Source: Tubulanus polymorphus
Lineage: Eukaryota; Animalia; Nemertea
Direction: 5' to 3'
DNA: 64,000 nucleotides
Assembly: GCF_964204645.1 (NCBI RefSeq)
Contig: NC_134036.1
Coordinates: 9,465,859 to 9,529,858 of the forward strand
The notes below the pieces were generated by a model. That model saw only the letters and a program-made list of their open reading frames with translations. It ran no database searches and had not been told where the DNA came from. A program made the translations under genes and the position numbers. Position 1 is the first letter of the stretch. Each line of letters begins with the position of its first letter. Of this stretch, positions 17,446 through 53,025 are shown piece after piece.

Positions 17446-18266
17446 CACGCTCGTCATTGTATGAGTGTACACACGCAGGCTTATGGCGAAATGAGTGTTA
17501 CAAATTGAACCAGAGAAATATAGAATACCCATATATAATACCCGTTATTGTAACGTTCATAGAATATGAAAGATGTCGGCAGAGTGAAGGACACGAAGTA
17601 CCTACCCTACCGGGGTTATATGAAACGCATTCGGTCGTGACAAGCATCCACAAGTTAAGGCTAGGCGCAAGATTAAACTATGGCTCCAAGGTCTTTTAGT
17701 TCTGGAGTGTTATACACATTAACGGTAATTGTATTTTACTGAAGTGTTACCGGAATATGCGGATTTAAGTTGTAAGAATCTAACTATGAATCAATGATTA
17801 ATGCTTGATTACATAACTTCATTTCTACAGCGGATTTTCAAACAGAAATATTTCTCGTCCATCTACAAAAAAAGCTTTGATAAACTTCTGTTTGTATTTG
17901 TGTGTTGCATACAAAAATGATCAACGAAAAGGAAAAGATTCAACATAGGTAGAAAGAAAATTAAGATTTTCCAAACTGTTTTATTATATATTTGTAGCTG
18001 TATAACAATCGAATTTAATTAACTGAATATCACACTGTTACCAGGCCACAGAAAATACGGTTTCAAGTTGTATGACTTCGTGGGGTGGGGGATAAGGGGG
18101 AAGGGGATTATATTTAATGATTAAAAGGCTGCGGTTCATAGTAACCATTTTACACTAATAGGTCCATTGAAACGATTTTCAAGGGCAGTGATTTCTTTAT
18201 CAATATCCAATTCTCAAACAAAATGTCCTACTGTAAATCGATGTGAATAAAATTTTAAATCAGTGG

Positions 18267-19175
18267 TTATTTGATTGAATTTCTACAGCAGATTTTCGTA
18301 CAGAAATATTCACGAATTTCTCGTCCAAGTAAAAGATATATGTAGAAATTTACCACATAGTTACACATTACGAATTGTGTGAAAATGTCATACAGAAATT
18401 CTTTCCGTTCCGTAAGGATTGGTAAAAATGCAGCAATAGTGGTTGGAAGTGTGAATATTGCAAATGCGAGTGAAACTGTTACAAGCATCATTGTTGTACG
18501 TTTCGATTTTGTAGTTTTCTTATCAGACGAAAGCATTTTTGTACCTCTGAATAACTGAATAATTATGATAGAATTTGATATTAGAATCAAACATAGATAA
18601 AGATTAGATAAAGGCAAAACAAAAGCGTAGACACCAAGCGGAGTAAGAAATTTTATTTGGACAATCAATTCATAGTAACATCCGAAAAACTGGTCGGAAA
18701 AATGTATCGACAAAACAGCGGGAATTTGATCCAGTCCAGTCACTGAAGTTATTATCAATATAGCAAATCTAGCGAATCTAGGTGTACATATCAAACGCGA
18801 ACAGAACGGAAAGAGAACAACTGCCGCACGTTCTAGAGCTATAGCTACCTATAACCAGGAACTGCTAGAATTGGCACCTGCCATCAATATTTCATATATC
18901 TTACAACTGATCAGTGAATTCATGATGAATATAAGACTAGTGTTTAGATTCAAGAGAACAAACTGTAAAAAAGGCATCAGTGTAAAATGTATACAGAACA
19001 GGAAATCACAGACTGATAAAATGACAAGATAGTTAGTGTAAGATAAACTGCGGAATCTGCGACTTGTCATTATGAGAAAAGTAGCTGAATTTCCAAAGAC
19101 TCCAAACAGAAACACGATAGGCAGAATGACCAAGGACACAGTACGGTACGTTCCAGACCTGTTCTGCACCGACAT
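18267..19175 (-). pseudogene. Single-exon class A (rhodopsin-like) GPCR, peptide-receptor-like; frameshift near 18850
   Basis: GN in TM1, LSVCD in TM2, SSSWL..A.ALER..VV.FP in TM3, NFYIY in TM7. Split into ORFs 18849-19175 and 18267-18794. Paralog of 48087-49034. Confidence 0.88.
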
Positions 19176-19470
19176 TAGAACGACGTAACTGCTATACGTT
19201 CGACCAATTCGAATCTAAGTTGAATTCATGATTCACGAGAATTAACTCAGTTCGGTATGCTCCGACCTGTTCACTACACGCATTATAGCAATGTAACTGT
19301 TTAACTGCATCTGAGTTGAATTCATGATTCGATTAAGTGTCAGAGGTGTGTGCACTGATTGTATCAATAGACCGACGATAAGTGCAAGCCATGACGTATA
19401 TTCATTTACGCACACAATTTATTGTTCGCAACAAATGAAAAACAAATTCTCAGAAATCTGACTGAAATTA

Positions 19471-19960
19471 TTAACCCGTTAGCACTCAAACCACCCGAAT
19501 TTGCCCGGCACTTTTTTCGTATGTTGCACGAAAACGGTTATAGTGGGACTCGAGCCCAAAAGCTTATGATAAACTAGACATCTAAGTTCTTGAAATACCG
19601 AACAACTGAAGATAATTTATTACATGGTTCTGGAAAAAATTACAAAATACAAAAGATAGAACCTCAAAGCACCCGAATTTGCCCGGCACTTTTTTCGTAT
19701 GCTTCATGAAAACGGTTATAGTGCGACTCGAGCCCAATAGCTTATGATCAACTAGACACCTAAGTTCTTGAAATACCGATCGGAAATCAACATCCTCCTA
19801 TTTCAATTTCTCGAGTATTTCAAATTTGAACATGACACATCTGAGCGCTCACTTCGAAATAGAACTCTGCTCTTTCAACACTGCGGACCTTGTTGTAGAA
19901 AGAAGTGACATTCTTTTAAGTCTGATTTCCCACTCAACTTTTGGCAAGAAGCAGCAGAAA
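19471..19960. mobile_element. Non-autonomous DNA-transposon fragment upstream of the GPCR (possible piggyBac-like TTAA-CCC end)
   Basis: Starts TTAACCCGTT and has an internal ~110-bp direct repeat (~19493-19600 / ~19670-19780). Related sequence lies at ~49300-49540 and ~55040-55520. No second terminus found. Confidence 0.35.
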
Positions 19961-27174: not shown

Positions 27175-27366
27175 GAGTAATAGGGATAATAGGCTTCCAG
27201 GTTAAAGGTCGAAGGGTCGAGCTCGTAAAAAAATGAAAATAACTATAATTTACAGTTGAATTAGTCGCGCACACTCCTAATTCAACTGCAAATTATTGTT
27301 ATTTTCATTTTTTACTCACTCGCCCCTTCAACCTTTAAACCTGAAAGCCTATTACCCCTATGACTT
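27175..27366. other. Long imperfect hairpin (~90-bp arms) upstream of pPolB
   Basis: GAGTAATAGGG...CAGTTGAATTAG / loop TCGCGCACACTC / CTAATTCAACTG...CCCTATGACT. Homologous hairpin at 56109-56236. Confidence 0.9.
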
Positions 27367-27643: not shown

Positions 27644-30600
27644 ATGGAAGCAAATAAGTACTACTGTCCAACATGTAATATCAATATAGATAAATCCCAA
27701 AAAGCAAGACACAATTAAACTAAAACACATTTAGAGAATAAATTGAAACTAGAATATAAAGATGATATATTAGAAACTAAATTAGATGAAATAAAGAATG
27801 AAAAAGAAACATACAAATGTGATACATGTAATCAAACATTCAGTGATAAAGATATTATAATGAACATTTAAAATCTAAAAGTCATATTAGAAAAAAGAAT
27901 AATGATGTTTTAGGTTAAGATTATTTTGATGAAGATAATGATAAGAAACAGAAGACAATTAAAAACATAAAAGATATATTAAACAATAAAAGACCATACA
28001 TGGAAGATGTAAGAAAATATATTAATTCATTAGATAATAAAAAAGATATAGAGATTACCGAAGCATTTAAAAGTGATATTGGCCCAGCAGCTATTGAGTT
28101 TAAATTTCATAAAGGAAAAACAGAAGAAAATAAAAAAACATTTAGAAAATATGAAAGAAATAATAAAAATAATTACAGATGTTGAATATCCTAAAATAAG
28201 TATATCTTCTAAAGTAAAGTTTATAAAATCTGAAGATAAACCAATATATAATATAAATTCTCATTCACAACATATTATATCTAAACAACATATAGATGAT
28301 AAATTAGATAAATGTTATAATGAAGTAAAAACTAAAATAGAAGAGAAATATTTTGAAGGATCTGGTTTAATATTTGATGAAATAATATTTATGACTTTAC
28401 ATGTTTATAACACAAAATATAATAAGTTAACTAAATCAAAACCAATTGATGAAAATAATGTATCATATTATAAAGAACCAGATATTGAAGCATCGAGTTA
28501 TATTAAACTACCATTTAAAACTAATGCTGTAATAAATGTACAAAATGAAGATGATAAATGTTTTCTATGGGTAATAATAAGTTGTTTACATCCTGCAACT
28601 TATAATATTTGTAGATTAACTCATTATAAACCATTTGAAAATAATTATAAGATAGATAAGTATCCTGTTATAAATAAAAACATCCCAAAGATAGAAAGAG
28701 ATAATAATTTAAGAATAAATGTATTTGATTTAATCAAATTACCAAATATAAAAGGTAACAACATAAAACATTATACATTAGAACCTTTATACCTATCAAA
28801 AGATTATGATTCAAACGATGTTATAGATATACTATATTATGAGAATCATTATATGTGGATTAAACAAATAGATTTATTCTTTAGAACAGAAAGTGATCAC
28901 CATAATAAAATATATCTATGTAGAAAATGTTTACATAAATTCAGTAATGAAAGTACATTATTAAATCATAAACAATTATGTGAAAATCATGATTATTGCA
29001 AATTTGTTTTACCAAATGAAAAGGATAAAATATTAGAATTCAAAAAATATGATTACAAAAATAAAGTACCATTTGTAATATATGGAGATTTTGAATCATT
29101 AAATAAGGAACTAACTGATCAAGATAGAAAAGAAATATATTATAACAGAAAGAAATTAAATTCTAATGAAAATTATTTTTCATATGAACCACCAATAACA
29201 AATACAATTAAAAAGATTCATCAATCAGCTTTTGGATTATATATTAAATCTGATTATCCAGAACTAATTGAAAGTGAATATTATGATTATAGAAATGAAA
29301 ATGTTATCAATCATTTTTGTGACTTATTAATTGAATATGAAATAAGATTTAGTAAATTATTGAATACAAATATAGAAATTATAATGACAGAAGAAGATAA
29401 AGAAGAATTTGCGTTTGCAGATAAATGTTATTATTGTGAAAAGATATTTAATTATAAAGATAAAAAAGTAAGAGACCATGATCATTTGAACGGAAGGTTT
29501 AGAGGCGCTGCACATGAGAATTGTAACTTACAAGCTAAGAAAATTAATTTTGTACCAGTTATATTTCATAATCTATCAGGATATGATGCACATTTATTCA
29601 TCAAACCGTTATGCCATAAAATAGAAGAAATTAATAATGAAATAGAAAGATTAGATTCAAATAGATCAAAAGATAAAATACCAACTTATAAATTTAGAAT
29701 GTTAGCTAAAACATCTGAGAATTACATATCATTCCAATTTGGGTGTCTAAGATTTATAGATTCATATAGATTTTTAAATAGTTCATTAGATAACTTATCA
29801 AAATCATTAGTTGATGATGAATTAAAGATATTAAAGCAACACTACCCAAATAATGATGATTTTCAATTAATGAGATATAAAGGCGCAATTCCATATCCAT
29901 TTTATAAATCACATAATGATTTTAACATAACTGAATTATTAAAAGAACAATTCTATGATGAATTAAAAAATGAATATGTTAAAGATGAAGTATATAATAG
30001 AACATTGAATATTTGGAATCATTTCAAAATAGAAAATCATGGACAATTAGTAGATTTATATTTGAAATCAGATGTATTATTATTAACCGATATATTAGAA
30101 AGGTTTAGAGATGTAAACCTAAAATATTTTAACATTGATCCATGTCATTGTTATTCATCACCAGGTTTACCATGGGATTGTGGATTAAAATTTACAGATA
30201 TAAAAATGGATTTGTTAACCAATATAGATCAATTATTATTATTTGAAGAATCTATAAGAGGAGGAGTTTCAGGTGTATTAGGTGATAGATATTTCAATGT
30301 AAATGATGACGCTGGATATAAGTTATTATATATAGATGCAAATAATTTGTATGGTTGGGCAATGATGGAACCACAACCTTATGGAGTATTTGAATTAACT
30401 GAAGTTTTACAGAATGAAAATAATGATAAATTTGATTGGAAGAAAATAATTCTAGATATTGCAGATGATTCAGATACTGGTTACTTCTTTGTTGTAGATT
30501 TAGAATATCCTGAACACATTAAATTTAAATCTAGAAATCTAGCTTACTGTCCCGAACATAAAACTGTCACACATGAAGAATTATCAAATTACCAAAAAAG

Positions 30601-31363
30601 AATTAAACCCGAAAATCATATTCATACAGAAAAGTTAATGGTAACTCAAGAAGATAAATATAATTATGTAGTACATTATAGAATGTTAAAGTTTTATCTA
30701 AAACAAGGAATGATCCTAAAAAAAGTACATAGTTATATTTCATTTAGTCAATCTAAGTGGTTAGAAAAATATATAGATTTTAACACCAAACAGAGAACTG
30801 AAGCTAAATCTGATTTTGAGAAAGATTTCTTCAAACTAATGAACAATGCATTCTATGGTAAGACTTGTGAAAATATCAGAAATAGAAATGATATTGAGTT
30901 AGTTAGTAATGGTAAAAGAATTAGACATTTACAATCATATCCTAAGTTCATTGGTAACAGAATATTTGATGACAATTTAGCTGCAGTTAAAATGAGAAGA
31001 ACATCTATGAAATTTAATAAACCAATTTATGTTGGTGCTTCAGTTTTAGAATTATCAAAATTACTAATGTATGAATTCTATTATAATGTATTACAACCAC
31101 TTTTTGGAGAAAAACATATAGAAATCTTATATTTTGATACTGACAGTTACATATTAAAGATAAAAACTGATAACATAACTAATGATTTAAAAACATTAAA
31201 ACATCATTTTGATTTCAGTAATTATCCTAAAGATCATGAATTGTTTAGCAATGATAATAAAAAAGTTCCCGGTAAATTCAAAGATGAATTAGGTGGCGAA
31301 GAAATGATTGAATTCATTGGTATTAGATCTAAAATGTATTTTTTTGATACTGATTTTTTTTAA
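27644..31363 (+). pseudogene. polB: Protein-primed family B DNA polymerase (pPolB), intein-free allele, with N-terminal zinc fingers and an inserted HNH/EndoVII-like domain; main ORF 28073-31363
   Basis: ExoI IYGDFES, CYYC..VRDHDH..GRFRGAAH..CN, FHNLSGYDAH, FIDSYRF, YIDANNLYGWAM (motif A), KLMNNAFYGKT (motif B), YFDTDS (motif C). The N-terminus from ATG 27644 (CPTC..H, CDTC..H) is broken by stops and frameshifts, and the C-terminal thumb is truncated. Confidence 0.95.
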
Positions 31364-35989: not shown

Positions 35990-38900
35990 TAAAATTAATA
36001 ATTTAAAAATATATGTATTCGAATTAATGCAATAACCAAAGACAAAAGGTGAAAATATTAAGGATTATACATTGGAAGCTTTATATTTAACAGAATATTA
36101 TGATGATGAAAATGCTATAGATTTGTTATATTACAAAAAAGATGAAAATGAACATTATATGTGGTTAAAACAAATTGATTTATTCTTTAGCACAGAAAGT
36201 GATTTTAACAGGCATAAAATTTATCTATGTAGAAAATTTTTATCTAAATTTAGAACTGAGAATGCTTTACTAAAACATAAAGAATTATGTGGTAATAAAG
36301 ATTTTTGTAAATTTATAATGCCAACAGAAAAAGATTATAAATTGAAATTTACTAATCATAAATTTAAGAATATTGTTCCATTTGTAATTTATGGGGATTT
36401 TGAATCGTTCAATAAAGAATTAACTGATCAAGATAGAAAAGAAATATATAACAAAAAGCAATTATTAAAATCAATGGATAAAGGAAATGAATTAAATGAA
36501 GACACAACACAAGATCCGCCAATTATAAACACAATTAAAAAAGTTCATCAAAGAGCTGCTGCTTATGGAATTTATATGAAATCAAATTATCCTGAATTAT
36601 ATGAAAGTCAATATATTTCTTTTAGAGGTGAAGATGTAGTTAATGATTTTTGTGACAAAATGATTGAATTTGAAAGTGATTTTGCAAAATTATTAAACAA
36701 AAATAAAAGAATAGTTATGACAAAAGAAGATGAAATTGATTTTAATTATGCAACTCATTGTTGTTGTTGTGAAAAAAACGTTTTCATTCATTTGATAAAA
36801 AAGTAAGAGATCATGATCATTTAAATTCAAAATATCGTGGAGCTGCTCATGAAGATTGTAATTTACAAGCTAAGAAAGTTAATTTCGTACCAATATTATT
36901 TCATAATTTATCAGGCTATGATACCCATCTATTTATAAAACAATTATCGAGAAAATTGGGCGCAATTAATCAAGAAATAGAAGAATATAATGCTATGAAT
37001 GGTGTAAATGTAAGAACTATTAGCTAAAACATCCGAAAATTATATTTCATTTCAATTTGGTTGCATTAGTTTTTTAGATTCTTATAGATTTCTTGCAAGT
37101 TCATAAGATAATTTATCAAAAAGTTTAGTTGATAATGATTTTATAATAACTCGATATTATTATCCAAATGAACAAGATTTTAAATTATTGAGATATAAAG
37201 GTGCAATTCCTTATTCATTTTATAAAACACACAATGATTTTAATGTAACAGAATTATTAAAAGATCAATTTTATGATCAATTAAAAGAGGAGTATGTGAA
37301 AGATGAAGTGTTTAATAGTACATTAAATATTTGGAACCATTTTAAGATGAAAAATCATGGTGAATTAGTTGATTTATACTTAAAATCAGATGTTATGATA
37401 TTGGCTGATATATTTGAAAAATTTAGAGAAGTTAATTTGAATCATTTTAATGTTGATCCTTGTTATTGCTACTCTAGTCCTGGTTTAACCTGGCAATGTG
37501 GTTTAAAATACACAAATGTAGAATTAGATTTATTAAAAGAACCAGACATGGTTTTATTATTTGAAAAATGAATTAGAGGTGGAATTAGTGGTGTTATGGG
37601 AGATAGGTATTTTAAAGCAAATGATGAATATAAATTATTATATATTGACGCCAATAATTTATATGGTTGGGCAATGATGCAACCTCAACCATACACAAAT
37701 TTTATATTGACAGAAGTTGAAAATGATGATAAAACTGATTGGGAAAGCGCAATTGCGAGTTTAAAAGATGAAACACCAATTGGTTATTTCTTTGTAGTTG
37801 ATTTAGAATATCCTGAAAATATAAAGTTTAAAACAAGAAACTTACCTTATTGCCCAGAACATTTAACCGTAGATGATAGTTATTTAAGTGAATACCAGAA
37901 GAAAATAAAACCGAAAGATCATGTTTTTACAGAAAAATTAATACTTACTCAAAATAATAAATACAATTATATTGTTCATTATAGAATGTTAAAATTTTAT
38001 CTAAAACAAGGAATGAAATTAAAGAAAGTACATAGATATATTGAATTTTTAATCAATCGAAGTGGTTAGAAAAATATATAGATTTCAATACTCAACGGAG
38101 AACCATATCAAAAAAAGATTTTGAAAAAGATTTCTTCAAATTAATGAATAATAGTTTTTATGGTAAAACATGCGAAAATATTAGAAATAGAAATGATATT
38201 GAATTAGTAAATAATTCTGAACGATTAAGACATTTACAATTAAGTCCTAGACATTTAGGAAATAAAAGATTTGAAGATTAGTTAACAGCAGTTAAATTAA
38301 AAAGAACGTCAATGAAATTTAATAAAGCTATATTAATTGGTTCAACTGTTTTAGAAGTATCAAAATTATTAATGTATGATTTTTATTATAATGTTTTACA
38401 ACCACTTTTTGGGGAAAAGCATATTGAAATATTGTATTTTGATTCTGTAACAGCTGACACCCCAATATTATTAAAATGTAATGATAAAATATTGATAAGA
38501 AGAATTTCAGAAATAATTCCCAAACAAAATGAATGTTATATTTCATATGGTGAAAAAGAATTAATACAAATAAATGGTTTAATGGATGTTTGGACAAGAA
38601 ATGGATTGAAAAAATTAAAGAATATTATTAGGCATAAAACAAATAAGAAAATCTATAGAGTTAGAACTAAATTAGGGTTTGTAGATGTTACAGAAGATCA
38701 TAGTTTAACTAAACGAATTGGCGATGAAATAAAACCAACTGATATAAACATTGGAGATGAATTATTACATAAAAGATTTTTCCAAAGAATGAATCATATG
38801 TCATTCGACGAAATTATTGATAATATTCATAATATAGAACCTGAAACATTAGAAGAAAAAGAATATTTTATCAAAGGATTTTTCATGGGTGATGGTTCAG

Positions 38901-39964
38901 CAGGTGCGTATAATTATGTTTGGGGTAATAAATATTGTTGGTATTTATGCAATCAAGACTTAAAATTATTAGAAAGAATTAAGAAATTCTGTGAAGAAGT
39001 TTATTCACATAAAACATTTAGAATCATGGATGTTATGAAATCATCAGCAGTTTATAGAATACTTGTAAATAATCCTAAAGATTTTGCTATAAAATATAAT
39101 GATGAATTCTATATTCATGCAATAGTGAAAAGTAATACTTCAACAAAAGAAAAGATAGTTCCAGATTATGTATTAAATGCAAAAAATTATTTAAGAAAAT
39201 GGTTCTTCATTGGATTCTACGCAGCAGATGGTGCTAAAAAATTTACAAAGGATAAAAAGAAAACCTTTGCACAGATAGGAAAAGTTGCTTTATCGGGGTT
39301 AAATATATTATGTAATTCATTAGGCTTCAATATGAATATTGGATTGATTAAATCTAAAGGAAATTGCTTTAATTTAAGCCACACAGAAAAAGATTTAACT
39401 GAAGAAGTTAAAGATTTATTTGAAATATATAACCCAACAGATTATGTTTATGATTTATCAACCGAAGATGGCACATTCACCTGTGGATTTCCATTAATTT
39501 GCTTCATTACTGATGCGTACATACTAAAAATCAAGACAAATGACATAACAAAAGACATAAAAACATTAAAACATCATTTTGATTTTAGCAATTATCCCAA
39601 AGATCATGAACTATTTAGCAATGATAATAAACAAATTCCTGGTAAATTTAATAATGAATTAGGGGGTGATGAAATGATTGAATTTGTTGGGATAAGAAGT
39701 AAAATGTATAGTTACAGAACAAAAGATCATGAAGCTACAAAGTTAAAAGGAATAACAAAGCATGTGGTTGATAAACATATAGAATTTCAAGATTATATAA
39801 AGTGTTTATATAACTCAATTGTAATGAAACACAAAATGAATTGTTTAAGATCAGAAGATCACGAGATGTACATTAATGAAGTTGAAAAAACTAGTTTGAA
39901 TCCATTTGATGATAAAAGGCATATTTTAGATGATGGTATAAAAACATTACCTTATGGTTATTAA
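35990..39964 (+). pseudogene. polB: pPolB, intein-containing allele; several frameshifts and stops upstream of the intein
   Basis: Collinear with copy A: IYGDFES, VRDHDH..YRGAAH..CN, YIDANNLYGWAM, KLMNNSFYGKT, YFD[intein]TDA, GIRSKMY, KLKGI, DDKRHIL.DGI.TLPYGY*. Fragmented into ORFs 36072, 37188, 37596 and 38312. Confidence 0.95.
38444..39508 (+). mobile_element. Intein (355 aa) with LAGLIDADG homing endonuclease in pPolB motif C
   Basis: In-frame 1065-bp insert absent from copy A. Block A SVTADTPIL, block B VDVTEDHSL, LAGLIDADG motifs FIKGFFMGDGS and FFIGFYAADGA, block F YVYDLSTEDGTF, and +1 Thr. The terminal residue reads Ile (ATT) where Asn (AAT) is expected. Confidence 0.95.
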
Positions 39965-41288
39965 AATGGATCAATATCATCAAACTCGAAATCGCTATTG
40001 GCTTCTTCATTTTCATTTAATTGTTCTTGTATAATTTGTTTAGGTTCTTCCATTTCATTTTTCTCATTTAAATAACGTGTTATATTGTGCCACATTTCAT
40101 CTCGCTCTCTTTGTTTCTTTTTGTTCGTCAATTCATCAAATGGAAATATAATATCTATGTTTAAATAATTTACAATCTTATTAAAAAAGAGTTCATAATT
40201 AGTTGAATCTGTTATTCTATTATCCACATAATATCTTAATATTTGTTTGAATGTTTCTTTTATATTTTCCATATCTTCTTCTGTTAATTTAGGTTTTTCA
40301 TAATTATCGTTAAATAATAAATATAAATACATTTTCTTTTGTTTTGTGTTAAATGTTGATGGAATAATTGTTTTTATAATATCTTTTTTAGTTATTTCAC
40401 CATTTTTATTTTCTATTTTTTTCATTTTTTCAAGCCATTGCATATATTCTGGTGTATGATCTTCTATAGAAAATATTTTAAAAATGTCATCTAGATAATT
40501 TAATTTTGGTTCTACGAGAAATTCTCTAGTTTTTTCATCACCCCATAAATTCTTTTGCCATCCACATTCATTACAAAATAACACAGTACCTTCTTGTCTT
40601 AAGGTCGCATAAATACATTGTGGGCATTTTTGTTTATAATTTATTGGTGATAGATCTTCATTAAGCTCTTGGTATTTTTTTACGTTTTCTTTATGTTTTA
40701 TTGTTCTATTATGTAGATTTTAATTACTTGTTGTAATAATCAATTTACAATATTTACAATAATATGTTTTTCTTGTTAATTCATTATATTGTTTTTCTAA
40801 CTTTTCAACTGTTTCTTTATTATCTGGTAACGTTTTCTCATAATTCATTTTTTCTAATATTTTATTTTTTCTTTCATTGAATTCTGCTTCAAATTTATTA
40901 GAAATTTTTATCTATATGTACTTTACGAAATTGATGATTCTCCCAATCTTCTATATTTTCAGGGCTATATTTTATTCGACAAGGCTCACAGAAATAATCT
41001 TTTATATTATCCTTATCATAGAATAAGAAAGGTCTTTTCCAAATAATTTCAGATTCAACTTCAACAGAATTACTATTACTTTCATTACTATCAACATTAG
41101 CCGTTGCGCCATTAATTTTACACTTCTCTGAATGATTTTTAACATAATTTCTTGAGAATAATTTATTACATTTAGGGCAGTTTATTTTAGGGGGTTTATA
41201 ATTTTCATCGTGTTTTTTTCATATGTCGAGCCATATTACTTTTTCTTAGAAGTTCACCACAAATTTCGCATGGTATCTTCTCATCCAT
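39961..41288 (-). pseudogene. Multi-zinc-finger protein fused to a VLTF3 (poxvirus A2)-like late transcription factor domain; open C-terminal ORF 39961-40584
   Basis: From ATG 41288: four CxxC..H fingers (two frameshifts, one stop), then a CPQC-x12-CNECG zinc ribbon and F.QI...NY..FF.KI...L....FP...L...K.RERD.MW..I...L, matching my recollection of the VLTF3 C-terminus. Confidence 0.68.
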
Positions 41289-41357
41289 TTATTTAGGAAA
41301 AATTTTATCAAAATTAATTTTTAGTGATGAGCGGTAATTTTTTTATGTTATAAATAA

Positions 41358-42020
41358 ATGGTAGAATTAAAAGAATACAGAATATTTGTTGATTCTAGAA
41401 AACTTTCAAATTATAAATCACATAATTTACTAATACAATTAGATAGAGAATTTGAGAATTGTGTTGATTTAAAATTAGTAAATATAAGTTTATGTAACTC
41501 ATTTTACAATATATCGGATAAAAGTCTAGAACATTTAATTTTTTCAATCTTTTACAAAAAAAGGAATAAATGTTTTTTTATATATTTAAAACCAGGATTA
41601 TATAATTTAGATACATTAGCACAAGAGATTAAATGAAAAGCTCGAGCTGAATTAGGAAGTGATTCCGGATTTAGTATTAGATTTTCAAAAAGTCATAGTT
41701 CTAATAAAAGAAGGTAGATCAAATTTAATGCCTTTTACACACTTTTATATTTATTGCAATTTAATCGATCCTACACAAACATTTGATTGAAGCAACTAAA
41801 GATAAAACTTGCAATTCTAGTATACTAAATATTTTTACCATTAAAAAATGTTAAACAATTTGGAACTCAAATAAATTTTAATTTAACAGAATGTGATTTT
41901 AAACTTTGCATTCCACATTTCAATAATTTCAAATTAGAAATAAGAAATCATAATGGTTATTTAATTGATTTAAATAACTTTCCTGTGATATATGAATTAG
42001 TTATAAGATGTAGAGAGTAA
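41358..42020 (+). pseudogene. Minor capsid protein (penton)-like, disrupted
   Basis: IFVDS..L.IQL......LKLV.....NSFYNIS...YLKPGLYNLDTL, then FYIYCNLID and FKLEIRNHNGYLIDLNNFPVIYEL in downstream frames. This pattern is typical of Polinton single jelly-roll proteins. Confidence 0.7.
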
Positions 42021-42036
42021 TTTTTTCATTATATAA

Positions 42037-42297
42037 ATGAATATAACTGTTGGACCGAGTATATGTTTTGGGTTTGATTTTAAACATGAGAAAGAAATGA
42101 AATTAAACATTAATGATGTAATAACACATATTAAAAATATTGCATTTTCTAATGAAACAACATTTGAGTATGAAACAACAATAGATAATGAAACTTTAAA
42201 TGTAGAAAAGATTACTAATTTAATTAGAGAATCTTTAAGATTTTATGAATTAGTTGAACATTTTATCATCGATGATATTAAAAAAAATAATAATTGA
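42037..42297 (+). CDS. Polinton hypothetical protein
   Basis: ORF preceded by the shared TAAATG motif. Confidence 0.6.
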   Translation: MNITVGPSICFGFDFKHEKEMKLNINDVITHIKNIAFSNETTFEYETTIDNETLNVEKITNLIRESLRFYELVEHFIIDDIKKNNN

Positions 42298-42393
42298 AAT
42301 ATATACAAATGAAACTGGTATTGAAATAAATGTTGAATTAATCATTAATAAGTTAGCTAAATATTTTGAAGATAGTATTTTTTTTATTAATAA

Positions 42394-42615
42394 ATGAGTG
42401 ATAATAAGTGGATAATAACTGGATTATATAATGGAGCATTACTATCAGTTGGAACTGTTGGTTATTCAATGGTATTAAAGAAAGTATTTAAAATGGGAAG
42501 TGTTAATGTTGATAGATTTGATATCAATGATATTTTAAAATTAACATTAGCAGTTACTTTATCTAATTTAACTATTGATCATTTGGAAAAACAAAAATAT
42601 ATTCCTCCTATATAA
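42394..42615 (+). CDS. Small Polinton membrane-associated protein (73 aa)
   Basis: Intact ORF with the shared motif and two hydrophobic or amphipathic segments. Confidence 0.7.
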   Translation: MSDNKWIITGLYNGALLSVGTVGYSMVLKKVFKMGSVNVDRFDINDILKLTLAVTLSNLTIDHLEKQKYIPPI

Positions 42616-42639
42616 ATGCGTAATTATTTTACTAAATAA

Positions 42640-43062
42640 ATGGCTTCTGCAGTTATAACTATTATAGGATCAGCAATTGTTAACGCTTTAGCATTTACTG
42701 GTGGTGGTTATTTATTTAAGCATATCGATAAAAATGGGTCATTAACAGAACAAAAAAGACATAACTTAGCATTAGAGAAATACAATAAAGCTGCAGAAGA
42801 ATATAGAGAAAAGAGGCAAAACTACATGGATTATATTAACAAGGAATTATATGATCAGAAGACTTCACATAGAGATTTTCAATCAGTTGATGGTGCAATG
42901 AGTTTATATAACGCGGTAACCAATAAAGAACAATTACATCTATACAAATCTAAATTATCAGATTATTATACCCCGAGTAAAGAACAACAGAAATATGAAA
43001 TAATATGGATTTTAGGTGGAACTGTTATTGTTATATATGTAGCATATAGATTTACTAATTAG
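42640..43062 (+). CDS. Polinton protein with N- and C-terminal hydrophobic helices and a central coiled coil (140 aa)
   Basis: Intact ORF with the shared motif; IIGSAIVNALAFTGGGYLF...KRHNLALE...WILGGTVIVIYVAY. Confidence 0.75.
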   Translation: MASAVITIIGSAIVNALAFTGGGYLFKHIDKNGSLTEQKRHNLALEKYNKAAEEYREKRQNYMDYINKELYDQKTSHRDFQSVDGAMSLYNAVTNKEQLHLYKSKLSDYYTPSKEQQKYEIIWILGGTVIVIYVAYRFTN

Positions 43063-43082
43063 TAATTTTTTTTGCTAAATAA

Positions 43083-43508
43083 ATGGATGATAATATTGAT
43101 AATATTCCTCATGATATAAATAAACATAAATTAAAAATATATTTAGAAAAACAAATATTAGAATTTGAAAATGATTTAAAAGTTAAGAAGAAAAAATATT
43201 TAAAATCTAAAATTATTTATTGTTTTATTAATAGTGGTTCGGTTACAATTAGTTCTGTAATAACATTTCTAGCAATATTCAGCCCACTAACACCTTTAGC
43301 TATATCAATTGGTGTATTAGGATTAAGTTCAAGTGTTTTAACTGGTATAAGTTGAAAATTAAATATAAAAAGTAATAAAGAAAAAATTAAAACTAATATA
43401 AAAGAAATTAATAAATTAAAGAATACACTAGATTATATAATAAGTTTAAATGGTCATATAACAGTTGAAGAACAAGATAAATTATTAAAAGAATTAATAA
43501 ATTATTAA
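43083..43508 (+). pseudogene. Polinton two-TM, coiled-coil protein with one in-frame stop (43353-43355)
   Basis: Hydrophobic hairpin SGSVTISSVITFLAIFSPLTPLAISIGVLGLSSSVLTGI. The frame continues past TGA to TAA at 43508, just before the next gene motif. Confidence 0.65.
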
Positions 43509-43523
43509 TTTTTTATCATATAA

Positions 43524-44836
43524 ATGGTAGATAGTTTTCCAAAAGCTTTCCAATATTATAAATCAATTAAATATAATATTCCAGCAATAGATTTTACTAA
43601 AGATATTTCATATAGAAATGAAGTTTTAAATTCATTAATTGATTTATATATTTATGTTACTGAAAGTAATAATTTTCATGTAAAGATGGAAAATATATTC
43701 AATGTTTATGAAATTAATTTTAAAGATTTAAATGAGGCAAAACAATGGTTATTAAAATCTTATATGAAGTATTGGCAGAACCAATTAAATTTTGCTGTTT
43801 ATTGTGCAACAACAGGATGTGGAATTAGTTGGAATGATCATTTGAATAAACCAAGTTTACCATTGATGTTATCACTTTTTAGATTGCATACTTATTTTCA
43901 AATAAAATTAATATTAGATGAATTAGAATGTCCTTTACCAGGTTCAAAATACTTTAATGAACTAAATAATAATATTAATTTTTCAAAGTTTTATAAATTA
44001 TGTAATGAATTTAATATTAATTCAAATAAAGATTTTAGAGCAAAAATTGGAACAATGGGTGGATTAGGAATATTATATACTAAAGAATTTGGAAAAATAA
44101 GGACAAATTCAGATATAAGAACACTAAATTGGAATGAATTACCAAAATATTATAATAATATACAACAACAAAACAATAATGGTTGGGTTAATTTCATTTT
44201 AGAAAATATTGAAGGTTTTACTAAAGCTGGAATACAAAGAATAAATCAAACTTATTTGATATGTATTTTAGGCGCTCAAGTTGAAACAAGATCACCAATA
44301 GTTGGAAATGATAACACTTCATTTGATGCGCAGAAACAATTCAAAGTATTATTTGAAGATTCCATTCATAATGATAAAAATAGATCGATTCCAGAAAACA
44401 TTGTAAGATATCAAAATTATTTAGATAAATCTCATGTAAGACTAAATTATTGTATAGGCCCTAAACTTTTAATTATTGCTAATGATTTAGTACTAAAGCT
44501 GGGAAACATAATTGGTTATAATAATCTAACTAAACTGCAACAGTAAATAATTCATTTGGGTTGAATGATATAAATAAAAAGATTATTACTGCCCCAAAAT
44601 TAATGGAAGGTGAAAAAAATAAAAAACATATTCAATCAACAGAAACTAAAACTAAGAATATTAAATTCAATAATGATTCTAAACCGGATTATAATACATC
44701 AGAAAATATTAAAACTGATAATATTCAACAGGATATAATTAAAACTGATAATGATAATAAATTCCATGAAAATACTAAATTAGCTTTAACTTGTATAGGA
44801 ATTGTAATCGGAGGAATGTTATATTTTAAATTTTAA
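43524..44836 (+). pseudogene. Conserved Polinton hypothetical protein with a C-terminal TM anchor; ORFs 43524-44546 and 44561-44836 are probably one frameshifted gene
   Basis: YWQNQLNFAVYCATTGCGIS motif. The second ORF lacks both an ATG and the TAAATG motif and ends in LALTCIGIVIGGMLYF. Confidence 0.65.
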
Positions 44837-44851
44837 TTTTTTATTATATAA

Positions 44852-46308
44852 ATGGATGTAGAAGGTGGAGAAGATATTGGAATGGATACTTTTGATGAAC
44901 CTGGCATAACTGATGAACAACAACCTGATTTTAGTGAAACAAGTTTTAATGACGGTAATGAGCCAGAATATAATAACAATTTAAATATGCCTGATTATAT
45001 TAAAAATGCAGAATCACAATTAAATCCTGAAAATTTAGACCCAGATTTAGTAAAACAAGATTTAGAAAATTTAAACAAAATACCTAAATTAGAACGTATA
45101 ATTGAAAATTCTAAATTTAACATAAATGATGAAGACGTTGGACCTTTAGCAGATAAATTAAAATTTTTAGATAATGGTAAATGGTATTATCATTTGAAAG
45201 ATGATTATTATATTGATATCACTTTTAAAAATGAAAACAAAATATTAGCAAAATCAACTTTAGACAAATTAGAACCAGGTAGAATTAAAAGAACTAGTAA
45301 TAGTAATGTAATAACTGATGTTATAAAACAAGAATTAACTGTAAATGATATAGACGTATTTAAACAAAAAATTAATGAATTATTTGACAAAATCAAAAAG
45401 AAATCAGAAACAGAAATAACTTCTGAACATAATATAACTTCCAATACTAGTAAACTTAAATCAAATAAATTGAAAAACTTTTACCGAATGGATTAATTGA
45501 TGCAACAGATCAAGAATTAGAAGATTTAAATAATATATTTTCTGTTGAAGCAATTAGAGAAATAAAAAGTATATGACTTGCATCTGATAAAATTGCGCAT
45601 GATATAAGTATAAGAGATTTTAAAATTCGAACTTTAGAAAAAGAATTAACTGATAAAAATAAAGAAATAGAACAATTAACGTCTGATTTAGATCATCAAG
45701 TAATTGATGTAATAGAATATAGGCAAAAAGAATTACGTTTAGAAAAAGAAATAGATGATTTAAAATATAACATAGAATTACAAAAAGAAAAAATTAAATT
45801 ATTATTAAAATCATATGATTATAATGTTAATAGATTAAAAGTTATTTTTAAAGATTTGTTGATAAAACCAAATTCTGAAATATCATTAAAAGATAGAATA
45901 AAGTTATTATTTAAATTAGAAGGAATAACAATTCTTTCAATTCTAACAGCTGTAACTATGTTATTTACAGCAATTGGTTTAGCAATATCAAATTCTTTGA
46001 AATCTACTCCTACTCCCAATAAACCGGATAAACCCCCGAATGATAATAATTCTATACAAGATAAAGTTAAGGATGGTTTAAAGAAATTAGCCAAATATTT
46101 ATGGGAACTATCTAAAAAATCTGCTGCAGCATTACCCGGAATTATTGCATCAATTGTTGGTTTTATATTGAAATCTGCAGGTAATATTCTTAACTTTGCT
46201 GCTGAACATATTATTTCATTTTTAATTACAGTTGTAAGTGCTATTATTTTTGGGTTAGTGAATATGATATCAAAAAGATATCAAGAAAAAGTAATAAAAA
46301 ATAAATAA
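44852..46308 (+). pseudogene. Large Polinton protein (acidic N-terminus, coiled coil, C-terminal TM segments), disrupted into ORFs 44852-45496 and 45856-46308
   Basis: Single TAAATG start, coiled-coil-like coding between the two ORFs, and EGITILSILTAVTMLFTAIGLAI...KSAAALPGIIASIVGFIL. Confidence 0.65.
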
Positions 46309-46328
46309 TTAATTTTTTTGTTAAATAC

Positions 46329-46707
46329 ATGAGTGGGAGTTATATAAGTCCTTCTAAGATTTCTAGAATATCTATGCTATTAAAGCAGAAAGATCACATC
46401 ATATAATTACTCATAATCCTTCAAATATTAATCCCGATGAAACTTTATATGTTAGAATTCCTAGATTAACACAAAATACTTTTTATGTTCCAAATAGTAT
46501 TTATTTATCAGCCGATATAAAAGTAACTGGTCATGATAATAATTGTGTTGTCGATAATGTTGGGAGATATTTGATTAAAAAATTAACTATAAAGATTGGT
46601 CCAGAAACAGTTTTCTCATTAGATGATTATAATTTATTTATGCATTATAAAGATTTATGGTTAACTAAAGAAAATAGAAATAATATGATATTTCAAGGCA
46701 TTCAATC
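46329..46707 (+). pseudogene. Major capsid protein (double jelly-roll) N-terminal third, frameshifted and truncated
   Basis: ERSHHIITHNPSNINPDETLYVRIPRL...YVPNSIYL...VVDNVGRYLIKKL.IK...VFSLDDY.LF.HYKDLWLT...R.NMIFQGIQ, matching my recollection of invertebrate Polinton MCP N-termini. Composition breaks at ~46707. Confidence 0.72.
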
Positions 46708-47207
46708 GTCCGTCGCGTCACTGTCTAATATCCGGCGTTTAACATTCAATTTCAATCGATGTTTCAGGTGAAATCCTGAACACTCGTTTATCGAGTACGA
46801 TCACGTTTTTTTCCCCGTGAAGTTTGCTATTAAAACGTTTATGCCCGATGTTTGCGAGGTTCAGGCTGTACATTGATACCAGCAAGAGTCACTTGCACCG
46901 CAATCGGTCGAATATACTCCGCACATTTATTGAAGATTTTCAATAAAAAAAAACTAAAATAAAACTGCAAGTTTCAAAAGTCTTTGCATTTTGAAAACAA
47001 CTCAAAGCTGATCGCCATTGCTTTACTAAAACGACGAAGAACGCAAATAAATACCTTGACAAGCGATGTGGCCTTCTCCCTGTACAAAGCCCTACAAGTT
47101 CAACAACGAATACGTATTTGTATTGAATATATCCGCATGTAATTATTGGGCAACCCCCTAGAATATCTGTCCCTACGCCCAATCGCACCCCCTAACCTCA
47201 TTATTAC

Positions 47208-47288
47208 CTGTATGTAGTTGGCGTTGATATAGTCGCTATAAGGATCAGCGCCAGTCTCAACTTCCAGCACGACTCGAGAGGCATCATC
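47208..47288 (-). pseudogene. Orphan exon of a classical (receptor-type) protein tyrosine phosphatase
   Basis: DDASRVVLEVETGADPYSDYINANYIQ (PTP motifs DxxRVxL and DYINA) followed by donor CAG|GTAAT. The acceptor AG is missing. Confidence 0.82.
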
Positions 47289-48086
47289 AAGAGAGGCACT
47301 CATTGCATGAGTGTACACATGCAGGCTTATGGCGAAATCCTGTTACAAATTGAACCAGAGAAATATATAATACCCGTTATTGTAACGGTTCATAGAATAT
47401 GAAAGATATCGGCAGAGTGGAGGACACAAACCTACCCTACCGGTCGTGACACGCATCCACAAGTGAAGAAGGCAAGGCGCAAGATCAAACTATGGCTCCA
47501 AGGTCTTTTAGTTCTGGAGTGTTATACACATTAACGGTAATTGTATTTTACTGAAGTGTTACCGGAATATGCGGATTTAAGTTTTATGAAGTCAATCAAA
47601 CTATGAATCAATGATTAATAAATGATTACATGACTTCATTTCTACAGCGGATTTTCATACAGAAATATTTCTCGTCCAGCTACAATAAAGTTTTGATAAA
47701 CTACTGTTTGTATTTGTGTGTTGTATACAAAATGACCAACGAAAATGAAAAGATTCAACAATTTGTAGAAAGAACATGTAGATTTTCCAAACTTTTTGTT
47801 TTATTATATATTTGCAGCTGTATAACAATCGAATTTCACTAACTGAATATCACACTGTTACCAGGCCACAGTAAATACGGTTTCAAGTTGTATGACTACG
47901 TGGGGTGGGGGATAAGGGGGCAGGGGAGTATATTTAATGATTAAAAGGCCGCGGTTCATAGGAACCATTTTACACTAATAGGTCCATTGACACGATTTTC
48001 AAGGGCAGTGATTTCTTGATTAATTTCCAATTCTCAAGCAAAATGTCCTACTATAAATCGATGTGAATAAAATTTTAAATCAGTGG

Positions 48087-49034
48087 TTATTTGATTGAAT
48101 TTCTACAGCAGATTTTCATACAGAAATATTCACGAATTTCTCGTCCCATTAAAAGATATATGTAGAAATTTACCACATAGTTACACATTAGGAATTGTGT
48201 GAAAATGTCATATAGAAATTCTTTCTGTTCCGTAAGGATTGGTAAAAATGCAGCGATAGTGGTTGGAAGTGTGAATATTGCAAATGCGAGTGAAACTGTT
48301 ACAAGCATCATTGTTGTACGTTTCGATTTTGTAGTTTTCTTATCAGACGAAAGCATTTTTGTTCCTCTGAATAACTGAATAATTATGATAGAATTTGATA
48401 TCAGAATCGACGATAAAGGCAAAACAAAAGCGTAGAAACCAAGTGGAGTAAGAAATTTCATTTGGACAATTAATTCATAGTAACATCCGAAAAACTGGTC
48501 GGAAAAATGTATCGACAAAGTAGCGGGAAGTTGAACCAGTACAGTCACTGTAGTAATTATCAATATAGCAAATCTAGCGAATCTAGGCGTGCATATCAAA
48601 CGAGAAGTGAACGGAAAGAGAACAACTGCCGCACGTTCTAGAGATATAGCTACCAATAACCAGGAACTGCTAGAATTGGCAACTGCCATCAATATTTCAT
48701 ATATCTTACAACTGATCAGTGAATTCATGATGAATACAAGACTAGTATTTAGATTCAATAGAATAAACTGTAAAACAGGCATCAGTGTAAAATTTTTGCA
48801 GTACAAGAAATCACAGACTGACAAAATGACAAGATAGTTAGCGTAAGATAAACTGCGGAATTTGCGACTTGTCATTATAAGAAAAGTAGCTGATTTTCCA
48901 AAGACTCCAAACAGAAACACGATAGGCAGAATGACCAACGACACAGTACGGTAAGTTCCAGACCTGTTCTCCACCGACATTAGAATGATGTAACTGCTAT
49001 ACGTTCGGCCAATTCGTATCTTAGTTGAATTCAT
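48087..49034 (-). CDS. Single-exon class A GPCR, peptide-receptor-like, open frame (315 aa; second Met MSVENRS may be the true start)
   Basis: Seven hydrophobic segments, LSVCD, C at the top of TM3, SLERAAVVLFP, FAIFTLP, NFYIY and a C-terminal CC. TM1 GN is changed to GK. Confidence 0.88.
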   Translation of the reverse strand: MNSTKIRIGRTYSSYIILMSVENRSGTYRTVSLVILPIVFLFGVFGKSATFLIMTSRKFRSLSYANYLVILSVCDFLYCKNFTLMPVLQFILLNLNTSLVFIMNSLISCKIYEILMAVANSSSSWLLVAISLERAAVVLFPFTSRLICTPRFARFAILIITTVTVLVQLPATLSIHFSDQFFGCYYELIVQMKFLTPLGFYAFVLPLSSILISNSIIIIQLFRGTKMLSSDKKTTKSKRTTMMLVTVSLAFAIFTLPTTIAAFLPILTEQKEFLYDIFTQFLMCNYVVNFYIYLLMGREIREYFCMKICCRNSIK

Positions 49035-49666
49035 GATTCACGAGAATTAACTCAGTTCGGTATGCTCCAGACCTGTTTACTACACGCATTATAGCAATGT
49101 AACTGTTAAACTGCATCTGAGCTGAATTCATGATTCGATTAAGTGTCAGCGGTATGTGGACTGATTGTATCAATAGACTGAAGCTACGTGCAAGCCATGA
49201 CGTATATTCATTTACGCAAGCAATTTATTGTTCGCATCAAATGAAAAACAAATTTTCAGAAATCTGACTCAATTTACTCAGATTCAGTAAAAATTTATCA
49301 CCCCATTGGCACTCAAGCTGTCCCTATCCCCCCAGACTTATACTACTCAAATCCCGAATCCGCCCGGCACTTTTTTCGTATGCCGCACGAAAACGGTTAT
49401 AGAAGGATTCGAGCCCAATAGCTTATGATAAACTACACGCCTAAGTCCTTGAAATACCGTACATAAATCAACATCCTCCTACTTCAGTTTCTCGAGTATT
49501 TCAAATTTGAACATGATACATCTGGGCGCTCACTTCGAATCCAAGTAAGTTGGGATTAATTTCGGGGGAGAAAAGGACATGATTTTGGTGGCCCGCCTCA
49601 TCAAATCTTACATCATATGAAAACCTTGACTATTTACTACAAATTACTACATTTACTACAAACTTA

Positions 49667-52444
49667 CAGGTTCAAAATACTTTAATGAACTAAATAATAA
49701 TATTAATTTTTCAAAGTTTTATAAATTATGTAATGAATTTAATATTAATTCAAATAAAGATTTTAGAACAAAAATTGGAACAATGGGTGGATTAGGAATA
49801 TTATATACTAAAGAATTTGGAAAAATAAGGACAAATTCAGATATAAGAACACTAAATTGGAATGAATTACCAAAATATTATAATAATATACAACAACAAA
49901 ACAATAATGGTTGGGTTAATTTCATTTTAGAAAATATTGAAGGTTTTACTAAAGCTGGAATACAAAGAATAAATCAATCTTTTAGAACTTATTTGATATG
50001 TATTTTAGGCGCTCAAGTTGAAACAAGATCACCAATAGTTGGAAATGATAACACTTCATTTGATGCGCAGAAACAATTCAAAGTATTATTTGAAGATTCC
50101 ATTCATAATGATAAAAATAGATCGATTCCAGAAAACATTGTAAGATATCAAAATTATTTAGATAAATCTCATGTAAGACTAAATTATTGTATAGGCCCTA
50201 AACTTTTAATTATTGCTAATGATTTAGTACTAAAGCTGGGAAACATAATTGGTTATAATAATCTAACTAAACTGCAACAGTAAATAATTCATTTGGGTTG
50301 AATGATATAAATAAAAAGATTATTACTGCCCCAAAATTAATGGAAGGTGAAAAAAATAAAAAACATATTCAATCAACAGAAACTAAAACTAAGAATATTA
50401 AATTCAATAATGATTCTAAACCGGATTATAATACATCAGAAAATATTAAAACTGATAATATTCAACAGGATATAATTAAAACTGATAATGATAATAAATT
50501 CCATGAAAATACTAAATTAGCTTTAACTTGTATAGGAATTGTAATCGGAGGAATGTTATATTTTAAATTTTAATTTTTTATTATATAAATGGATGTAGAA
50601 GGTGGAGAAGATATTGGAATGGATACTTTTGATGAACCTGGCATAACTGATGAACAACAACCTGATTTTAGTGAAACAAGTTTTAATGACGGTAATGAGC
50701 CAGAATATAATAACAATTTAAATATGCCTGATTATATTAAAAATGCAGAATCACAATTAAATCCTGAAAATTTAGACCCAGATTTAGTAAAACAAGATTT
50801 AGAAAATTTAAACAAAATACCTAAATTAGAACGTATAATTGAAAATTCTAAATTTAACATAAATGATGAAGACGTTGGACCTTTAGCAGATAAATTAAAA
50901 TTTTTAGATAATGGTAAATGGTATTATCATTTGAAAGATGATTATTATATTGATATCACTTTTAAAAATGAAAACAAAATATTAGCAAAATCAACTTTAG
51001 ACAAATTAGAACCAGGTAGAATTAAAAGAACTAGTAATAGTAATGTAATAACTGATGTTATAAAACAAGAATTAACTGTAAATGATATAGACGTATTTAA
51101 ACAAAAAATTAATGAATTATTTGACAAAATCAAAAAGAAATCAGAAACAGAAATAACTTCTGAACATAATATAACTTCCAATACTAGTAAACTTAAATCA
51201 AATAAATTGAAAAACTTTTACCGAATGGATTAATTGATGCAACAGATCAAGAATTAGAAGATTTAAATAATATATTTTCTGTTGAAGCAATTAGAGAAAT
51301 AAAAAGTATATGACTTGCATCTGATAAAATTGCGCATGATATAAGTATAAGAGATTTTAAAATTCGAACTTTAGAAAAAGAATTAACTGATAAAAATAAA
51401 GAAATAGAACAATTAACGTCTGATTTAGATCATCAAGTAATTGATGTAATAGAATATAGGCAAAAAGAATTACGTTTAGAAAAAGAAATAGATGATTTAA
51501 AATATAACATAGAATTACAAAAAGAAAAAATTAAATTATTATTAAAATCATATGATTATAATGTTAATAGATTAAAAGTTATTTTTAAAGATTTGTTGAT
51601 AAAACCAAATTCTGAAATATCATTAAAAGATAGAATAAAGTTATTATTTAAATTAGAAGGAATAACAATTCTTTCAATTCTAACAGCTGTAACTATGTTA
51701 TTTACAGCAATTGGTTTAGCAATATCAAATTCTTTGAAATCTACTCCTACTCCCAATAAACCGGATAAACCCCCGAATGATAATAATTCTATACAAGATA
51801 AAGTTAAGGATGGTTTAAAGAAATTAGCCAAATATTTATGGGAACTATCTAAAAAATCTGCTGCAGCATTACCCGGAATTATTGCATCAATTGTTGGTTT
51901 TATATTGAAATCTGCAGGTAATATTCTTAACTTTGCTGCTGAACATATTATTTCATTTTTAATTACAGTTGTAAGTGCTATTATTTTTGGGTTAGTGAAT
52001 ATGATATCAAAAAGATATCAAGAAAAAGTAATAAAAAATAAATAATTAATTTTTTTGTTAAATACATGAGTGGGAGTTATATAAGTCCTTCTAAGATTTC
52101 TAGAATATCTATGCTATTAAAGCAGAAAGATCACATCATATAATTACTCATAATCCTTCAAATATTAATCCCGATGAAACTTTATATGTTAGAATTCCTA
52201 GATTAACACAAAATACTTTTTATGTTCCAAATAGTATTTATTTATCAGCCGATATAAAAGTAACTGGTCATGATAATAATTGTGTTGTCGATAATGTTGG
52301 GAGATATTTGATTAAAAAATTAACTATAAAGATTGGTCCAGAAACAGTTTTCTCATTAGATGATTATAATTTATTTATGCATTATAAAGATTTATGGTTA
52401 ACTAAAGAAAATAGAAATAATATGATATTTCAAGGCATTCAATC
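49667..52444 (+). mobile_element. Duplicated Polinton B segment (ORFs 49783, 50298, 50589, 51593 and the MCP fragment 52066-52444)
   Basis: Translations are identical to those of 43939-46707 apart from a 3-aa indel (SFR) and one substitution. Confidence 0.93.
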
Positions 52445-52944
52445 GTCCGTCGCGTCACTGTCTAATATCCGGCGTTTAACATTCAATTTCAATCGATGTT
52501 TCAGGTGAAATCCTGAACACTCGTTTATCGAGTACGATCACGTTTTTTTCCCCGTGAAGTTTGCTATTAAAACGTTTATGCCCGATGTTTGCGAGGTTCA
52601 GGCTGTACATTGATACCAGCAAGAGTCACTTGCACCGCAATCGGTCGAATATACTCCGCACATTTATTGAAGATTTTCAATAAAAAAAAACTAAAATAAA
52701 ACTGCAAGTTTCAAAAGTCTTTGCATTTTGAAAACAACTCAAAGCTGATCGCCATTGCTTTACTAAAACGACGAAGAACGCAAATAAATACCTTGACAAG
52801 CGATGTGGCCTTCTCCCTGTACAAAGCCCTACAAGTTCAACAACGAATACGTATTTGTATTGAATATATCCGCATGTAATTATTGGGCAACCCCCTAGAA
52901 TATCTGTCCCTACGCCCAATCGCACCCCCTAACCTCATTATTAC

Positions 52945-53025
52945 CTGTATGTAGTTGGCGTTGATATAGTCGCTATAAGGATCAGCGCCAGTCTCAACTT
53001 CCAGCACGACTCGAGAGGCATCATC
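52945..53025 (-). pseudogene. Duplicate of the orphan PTP exon
   Basis: Identical to 47208-47288. Confidence 0.82.

Follow-up and report, generated by a model that had tools for sequence, protein, structure and literature searches.

Polinton-like copies in the window

The window analysed here is a stretch of 64 kb from the nemertean Tubulanus polymorphus, and it contains three broken copies of a Polinton-like element, referred to as A, B and C. The polymerase gene of copy A (28052-31340, forward strand) has an open frame, with an Endonuclease_7-like stretch inside it. The ORF around it (28052-31363) encodes the product P0001, which matches PF03175 (E 6e-14, 52 bits, cut-off 25.8); the protein-primed family-B polymerase (pPolB) that marks Polintons and Mavericks is thus present above cut-off. 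This ORF encloses an empty intein site in polymerase motif C (31085-31200, forward strand). Positions 31130-31147 read TAT TTT GAT / ACT GAC AGT, i.e., YFD/TDS, where the slash marks the junction at 31138/31139. This direct reading confirms the claim of an earlier note on the same DNA that copy A carries the uninterrupted homologous site. By itself, the empty site is ordinary.

The copy A polymerase breaks off at 31340, which is 67 codons past the empty site. In run X5, a set of raw reads from another sample and study under the same species label, of which about 12% was read, 138 reads run on from 31340 into a polymerase C-terminus, and the break is therefore private to the copy A of the window. 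Directly past the break point, a sequence match reveals a 12-nt repeat of the core of the empty site (31342-31353, forward strand). It is the sole further copy of this core in the 64-kb window, where 0.02 copies are expected, and it may have arisen by end-joining repair as a templated insertion, or else by chance.

In copy B (polymerase gene 35996-39964, forward strand), the same upstream codons end at 38443, followed by an in-frame insert of 1065 bp (38444-39508), after which the polymerase resumes with ACT GAT GCG at 39509. The insertion point is the Asp/Thr boundary of motif C (YFD/intein/TDA), which places the insert among pol-c inteins. The gene is missing its 5' end and is open from 38282 to its end; upstream of the intein it bears at least three in-frame stops and at least three frame changes. 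The rest of element B (39961-46771) holds unnamed ORFs by ORF scan, including ORF 43524-44546, as well as a weak match to the N-terminal part of the major capsid protein at 46367-46771 (PF16903, E 0.002, under cut-off, in a truncated ORF). Copy C (56106-58533, forward strand) carries a hairpin at its left end (56106-56237, z -13.7), and its polymerase fragment (56631-58533) is A-like, with 86% DNA identity to copy A. Copy C was considered as a third allele and dropped, since the fragment stops short of the intein site.

Polintons and Mavericks bear terminal inverted repeats and a 6-bp target duplication. Left ends are the only element ends visible in the window, at A (27176-27365, z -14.0) and at C, and a right end was not found there. 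Both of these left ends are long imperfect hairpins, unlike plain terminal repeats. RVE integrase, packaging ATPase and adenain protease gave no Pfam match in the scanned ORFs of the three copies, all of which are fragments, and the assignment of these elements to Polintons proper is accordingly provisional. The three fragments share one orientation and lie within 32 kb (27176-58533); such a cluster could represent an insertion hot spot or a graveyard resembling a small-RNA cluster.

The intein of copy B and its family

The insert of copy B is an intein of 355 codons in an open frame (38444-39508, forward strand), with Ser as its first residue, TxxH and block F. It matches TIGR01445 at 31.3 bits (cut-off 24.5), in agreement with the presence of the N-terminal splicing motifs (Ser 1, TxxH), and it matches the Intein_splicing profile at E 1.4e-7, under the curated cut-off. 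Alignment reveals two LAGLIDADG-type motifs with their acidic residues on the forward strand, the first ending in GDG (38867-38896) and the second in ADG (39203-39232). The match to PF14528 (E 4.5e-4) is under cut-off in the B intein and above it in the inteins of P0051 and P0159. The B intein is without a terminal Asn or Gln, though Thr is present at +1; the 120 parsed relatives end in Asn (118) or Gln (2), and both P0051 and P0159 retain the terminal residue. GC (0.26) and GC3 (0.17) are the same in the B intein and its extein, and this lack of a shift rules out base composition as a signal of recent intein gain.

According to PMC549080, pol-c inteins occupy the Mimivirus PolB at YGD/TDS and position III of the archaeal PolI. 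The B intein resembles them in the same motif C point, the first Ser, TxxH, two LAGLIDADG motifs, Thr at +1 and a length of about 350 residues. It has 28-40% identity over full length to giant-virus alleles and matches PI-PkoII weakly (E 5e-5). However, the pol-c inteins of viruses and archaea reside in an RNA-primed PolB, whereas the B intein resides in a protein-primed PolB (PF03175), within an element integrated in an animal genome. Additionally, the pPolB inteins form a group of their own, and the window copy differs in the absence of the terminal Asn.

A total of 37 viral loci with the intein were found, by name mostly giant-virus contigs, and in 25 of the 27 IMG/VR loci examined, the intein lies between the Asp of the motif and TD. 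Closer inteins (44-71% identity) occur in pPolBs, comprising about 20 fragments along with proteins that are long or complete, P0051, P0159 and P0162 among them. In a quick tree of 50 rows, the 14 inteins from pPolBs cluster as a single group (SH-aLRT 98), which suggests one entry of the intein into these polymerases, presumably in the direction from the large-virus pool. Related inteins (27-32% identity) are also seen in the type II topoisomerase-domain proteins P0263, P0266, P0275, P0276 and P0277, which cluster in the tree and possibly represent a non-allelic jump. Another related intein is found in P0258, a protein named by its source as DNA polymerase delta of Chloropicon primus.

Local identity between copies A and B

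The junctions of A and B are separated by 7,305 bp. The 21 codons of the upstream extein are identical in protein between the two copies, and the identical run reaches 23 residues when +1 and +2 are counted, against 70% protein identity over the whole gene (863 codon pairs; 74-84% identity in DNA). The upstream extein is thus identical despite diverged polymerases, as had been claimed. It does not, however, set this pair apart: a longer identical run of 24 residues lies at +18 to +41, 13 runs of at least 10 residues are spread along the gene, and four relatives from other assemblies (P0039-P0042) share 18-19 of the 21 upstream residues with both copies. These relatives support active-site conservation, which the earlier note had offered as an alternative source of the local identity, and the identical upstream peptide reflects mostly the constraint on motif C. 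Conserved regions are the usual seat of inteins, as stated in PMC2814812.

The other source put forward, a recent co-conversion between A and B, fails the very check proposed for it, as the synonymous profile shows no dip. The pS between A and B is 0.49 over 863 codon pairs and 0.89 within ±10 codons of the site, where 10 of the 19 identical-residue codons differ silently (p below 1e-4 against the A-C rate of 0.116). No flank window falls under the gene-wide synonymous rate (P 0.65-0.98) and all windows are above the A-C rate (p <=0.012), in a test that is weak for old events: with 187 differences against 201 expected at saturation, silent sites are about 93% saturated, and old conversion events are therefore invisible to it.

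A reading of neighbouring A and B as a local donor-target pair with recent co-conversion would draw on their 7.3-kb spacing and the 21 identical upstream residues. It is very improbable and already largely refuted, as the silent differences lie far above the A-C rate, both copies are truncated, and both stem from multi-copy families. The spacing of 7 kb noted earlier is correct as a measurement, yet a meaning for it is not supported, both copies being broken fragments. That A and B lie next to each other is likely incidental, since neither copy is complete, the frame of B is broken upstream of the endonuclease and both families are multi-copy.

Two candidate markers were set aside. The Leu shared by A and B at -13 and -4 was weakened as proof of conversion between them, since Leu at -4 is shared by P0323 of the A lineage and Leu at -13 turns up in 6 of 131 other rows. 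Ala at +3 was rejected as an intein-linked marker, since it is also present in the empty P0052, P0287, P0288, P0290 and P0323.

Read depth and allele make-up

The read figures from run X5 are depth ratios, not allele counts, and give 481-620x for A, 238-327x for the upstream extein of B and a median of 60x for the spacer, with the A family at about twice the depth of B. The first two intein bins, covering its 5' two-thirds, stand at 215-239x with no step at the 5' junction, and the bin with the 3' junction stands at 124x. A and B are multi-copy families, B being mostly filled and A mostly empty; the intein share of at most about 27% of the A+B depth implies the latter. Filled and empty alleles thus coexist in one host species, as the earlier note held for one host, and both multi-copy families are also found in the reads of another sample.

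Around the 3' junction of the intein (39224-39624), the depth halves, with 72-104x at 39480-39502 against about 245x upstream, which indicates that family copies differ there from the copy in the window. Additionally, one contig of run X4 joins the 3' end of the intein to 31137, on the A side of the junction, and filled A-like alleles may therefore exist.

Lineages and the evidence for homing

Among the best 120 of 2225 matches of the A polymerase, 119 are empty at the site, and on this comparison empty is the default state. An extein tree, built from 42 rows chosen from available proteins, places the B extein nearest P0042 (locus L038) and the A extein nearest P0039 (L039), P0040 and P0041, all of which are empty. 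On this tree, A and B belong to distinct lineages, and for each of them a nearer relative, itself empty, is found elsewhere. By its lineage, and by flanks that are not near-identical in DNA, A is evidently not the cognate allele of the intein of B. The loci L038 and L039 represent B- and A-lineage elements together in one other assembly, both empty. Filled exteins are scattered on the tree, with 8 of the 42 rows filled and 6 changes, at least 4 of them forced by well-supported branches. A viral scan with the A polymerase returned 3 distant loci, and no filled allele with DNA context was present among 41 metagenome loci.

A related family supplies a further comparison. P0159 belongs to a 90% cluster of 136 members, and 12 of the 15 listed have the length needed for comparison, 7 of them filled and 5 empty. 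Filled and empty members share 98.4% identity far upstream and 95.6% far downstream, and 80% and 75%, respectively, within 20 residues of the site. Filled and empty members are separated by 10 fixed differences, every one of them at -7 to +44, and the filled flank looks like that of another pPolB lineage. This pattern is the footprint that would be expected of homing with co-conversion. Counting against homing, an empty member of the P0161 cluster carries flanks that match those of filled alleles exactly.

Pairs of empty alleles vary at the same place. Site-focused variation is significant in 5 of 8 comparisons (p <=3e-4), two of which share P0323 (P0324-P0323 being a duplicate); one of the remaining comparisons gives p 0.09 and two have no difference at the site. 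Within the A lineage, P0323 and P0041 differ at 7 of 1241 residues, 3 of them at -4, -2 and +3 (p 1e-4). Empty alleles thus appear to differ mainly at -5 to +3, a pattern in these alignments for which escape from the intein is the proposed cause. In the empty pPolBs P0055, P0056, P0100, P0284 and P0286, Cys replaces Thr at motif C +1 (CDS), a splicing-compatible residue in an altered DNA site.

In the window itself, a four-taxon test was applied to A, B, L038 and L039. The lineage (vertical) signal is missing from codons -15 to +15 of copy A (31094-31183, forward strand): none of the 9 informative sites that lie within ±15 codons has the vertical pattern, whereas the rest of the core has it at 111 of 147 (p 7e-6; p 3e-5 without codon +3; scan-corrected p 0.01-0.02). 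At 9 of 9 resolvable sites from -13 to +13, B agrees with the A-lineage relative. Its upstream flank (codons -15 to -1, 38399-38443, forward strand) belongs to the mosaic tract, and its downstream flank (codons +1 to +15, TDA, 39509-39553, forward strand) is A-lineage-like at the diagnostic positions. Windows that are equally or more conserved keep 5-12 vertical sites, and a second run equally poor in such sites (-576 to -523) falls in a badly aligned part. A synonymous-only version of the test gives p 0.3 and a protein-only version p 0.049. With 9-10 informative sites in a single quartet, the test points to an older mosaic tract at the site, as a DNA-level signal that is weak in protein.

These results bear on the view that no homing took place in the host lineage, the intein having been inherited vertically in B and lost elsewhere, with the local identity put down purely to active-site constraint and the mosaic to noise or to ordinary recombination within conserved sequence. 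The flat synonymous profile, the same peptide in relatives, the seating of inteins in conserved regions anyway (PMC2814812) and the concordance of the two main clades between intein and extein trees are all compatible with it, as is the equal GC and GC3 of intein and extein, which carries no sign of recent foreign origin. We nevertheless regard it as improbable, as more conserved windows keep the vertical signal, the closest relative of B (L038/P0042) is empty, and the P0159 family displays a clear co-conversion tract. Overall, intein homing among Polinton polymerases appears well supported by these comparisons.

Status of the empty site in copy A

The reading that we favour, at a probability of roughly 0.6, is that 31138/31139 represents an intact empty site in a truncated Polinton-like copy A, that the intein of B spread by homing with short co-conversion, and that A is an escape-type allele, not the target of its broken neighbour. 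The proposed course would begin at polymerase motif C, the position of the giant-virus and archaeal pol-c inteins, with an insert such as that of B, which carries Hint and two LAGLIDADG motifs. In an active element, from what is known of the family, the intein would be translated in frame, splice itself out and cut empty motif-C sites. Repair would then copy the intein together with short donor flanks, leaving mosaic tracts, as the related P0159 family displays and as the window suggests. Empty alleles that persist carry altered amino acids at -5 to +3, and these would be the outcome of escape. Exchange of this kind would take place between active elements in one host cell, and not between the decayed chromosomal A and B.

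That A itself is an escape allele may be argued from a single amino-acid difference, at +3, and from analogy. The flanks of A and B are mismatched at 6 of 30 nt, mostly silent, and at 9 of 42 nt when ±21 nt are taken, with the one amino-acid change at +3; for L039 and B the mismatches are 3 of 30 and 4 of 42 nt. Intein endonucleases are described in PMC3159444 as accepting silent changes, and one non-silent change can block them.

The same figures also lend weight to a different view, in which the site of A is fully cleavable, and A is empty as active A and B elements seldom met or as the endonuclease decayed before a sweep, with few filled A-like alleles in existence. The mismatches are few and mostly silent, and tolerance at wobble positions is documented in PMC3159444. 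Of the 20 parsed filled alleles, 19 have TDS downstream, as A does; TDS sites are therefore targeted by the intein family overall, and for this reason the site of A may well be cleavable. Additionally, the X4 contig links the intein end to the A side of the junction, and the flanks of B look derived from the A lineage, which suggests that A-lineage elements once carried the intein. Against this view stand the abundance of A, about twice that of B, and its mostly empty state although B is nearly fully filled, as well as the differences at -5 to +3 among the empty alleles that survive in related families; taken as a whole, we consider it rather unlikely. Under the favoured escape-type reading, the suggestion of the earlier note that A provides a ready candidate substrate for the endonuclease stands in part: with its 6 mismatches in 30 nt mostly silent, the site is a reasonable assay candidate, but it is likelier a poorly matched survivor than a ready target.

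A broader picture can be drawn tentatively, at somewhat short of even odds. An intein of giant-virus type would have established itself in the catalytic motif of the polymerases of Polintons, among them families in the animal germ line, and would home from one Polinton lineage to another with short co-conversion tracts. An arms race would have followed in which empty families such as A survive through changes at -5 to +3, in the motif under the strongest constraint in the enzyme.

Relation to known systems

Like Polintons/Mavericks and adintoviruses (PMC8502044 and Jeong et al. 10.1101/2023.08.22.554363), the elements in the window have a PF03175 polymerase with an embedded HNH/Endonuclease-VII-like stretch. 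Also Polinton-like are their many relatives in animal genomes, the weak capsid match, the multi-copy state and the integration, whereas integrase, packaging ATPase and protease gave no match in these fragments and the left ends are hairpins. Inteins have 0 occurrences in the main text of either source. Also comparable are the HNH and VSR nuclease insertions in polinton pPolBs, for which PMC11071308 suggests an origin in intein invasions. As in B, a nuclease sits inside a Polinton polymerase; those nuclease domains come without a reported splicing domain, whereas in B the catalytic motif holds a complete intein of Hint and LAGLIDADG type, and both filled and empty alleles exist.

Among other intein systems, the haloarchaeal MCM sites, as PMC10643990 presents them, likewise have empty alleles that differ beside the site and flanks that are co-converted on invasion. 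They differ in belonging to a cellular archaeal gene, with experimental proof and a resistance ascribed to failed splicing, whereas the window system is read from sequence comparison. Algal and labyrinthulid nuclear scaffolds (PMC10710043) likewise contain virus-derived polymerase inteins in a eukaryotic nuclear genome; the hosts there are non-animal, and Polinton has 0 occurrences in the main text. A review states that inteins are absent from metazoan genomes (PMC8529194), and in a survey of inteins in eukaryotes (PMC5784728) the viral polymerase inteins listed come solely from families of large DNA viruses and from unclassified viruses.

In the literature searched, including PMC12220804, PMC11071308, PMC10710043, PMC5784728, PMC8502044 and Jeong et al., a Hint and LAGLIDADG intein in a Polinton polymerase was not found to be reported; such proteins could be present in the sequence files of PMC8502044 or among the tabulated inteins of PMC10710043 and PMC5784728. 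Both mechanism and allele type are known, and what appears to be new is the protein that hosts the intein and its setting in an animal genome. If true, a homing intein in Polinton polymerases would mean that DNA passes between these elements and that they took up inteins from the giant-virus pool, which needs shared host cells and active replication. It would also mean that intein homing runs its cycle within animal genomes, from which inteins are said to be missing. Filled and empty alleles represent natural enzyme-substrate pairs, which makes the escape idea directly testable.

Other features of the window

Beyond the polymerase copies, the window contains a 5.7-kb tandem duplication (43939-49646 and 49667-55382, 99.8% identity), which takes in the end of element B together with a repeat that bears a GPCR, and represents either a recent duplication or an assembly artefact. 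A 2.2-kb repeat is found three times (17454-19604, 47300-49463 and 53037-55200) at 88-99.8% identity. Riding on it is a single-ORF rhodopsin-family GPCR (48087-49037, minus strand), whose ten nearest clusters among the matches listed are commonest in animal phyla. A broken Helitron with Helitron_like_N and PIF1 helicase matches lies at 6993-10369 on the minus strand.
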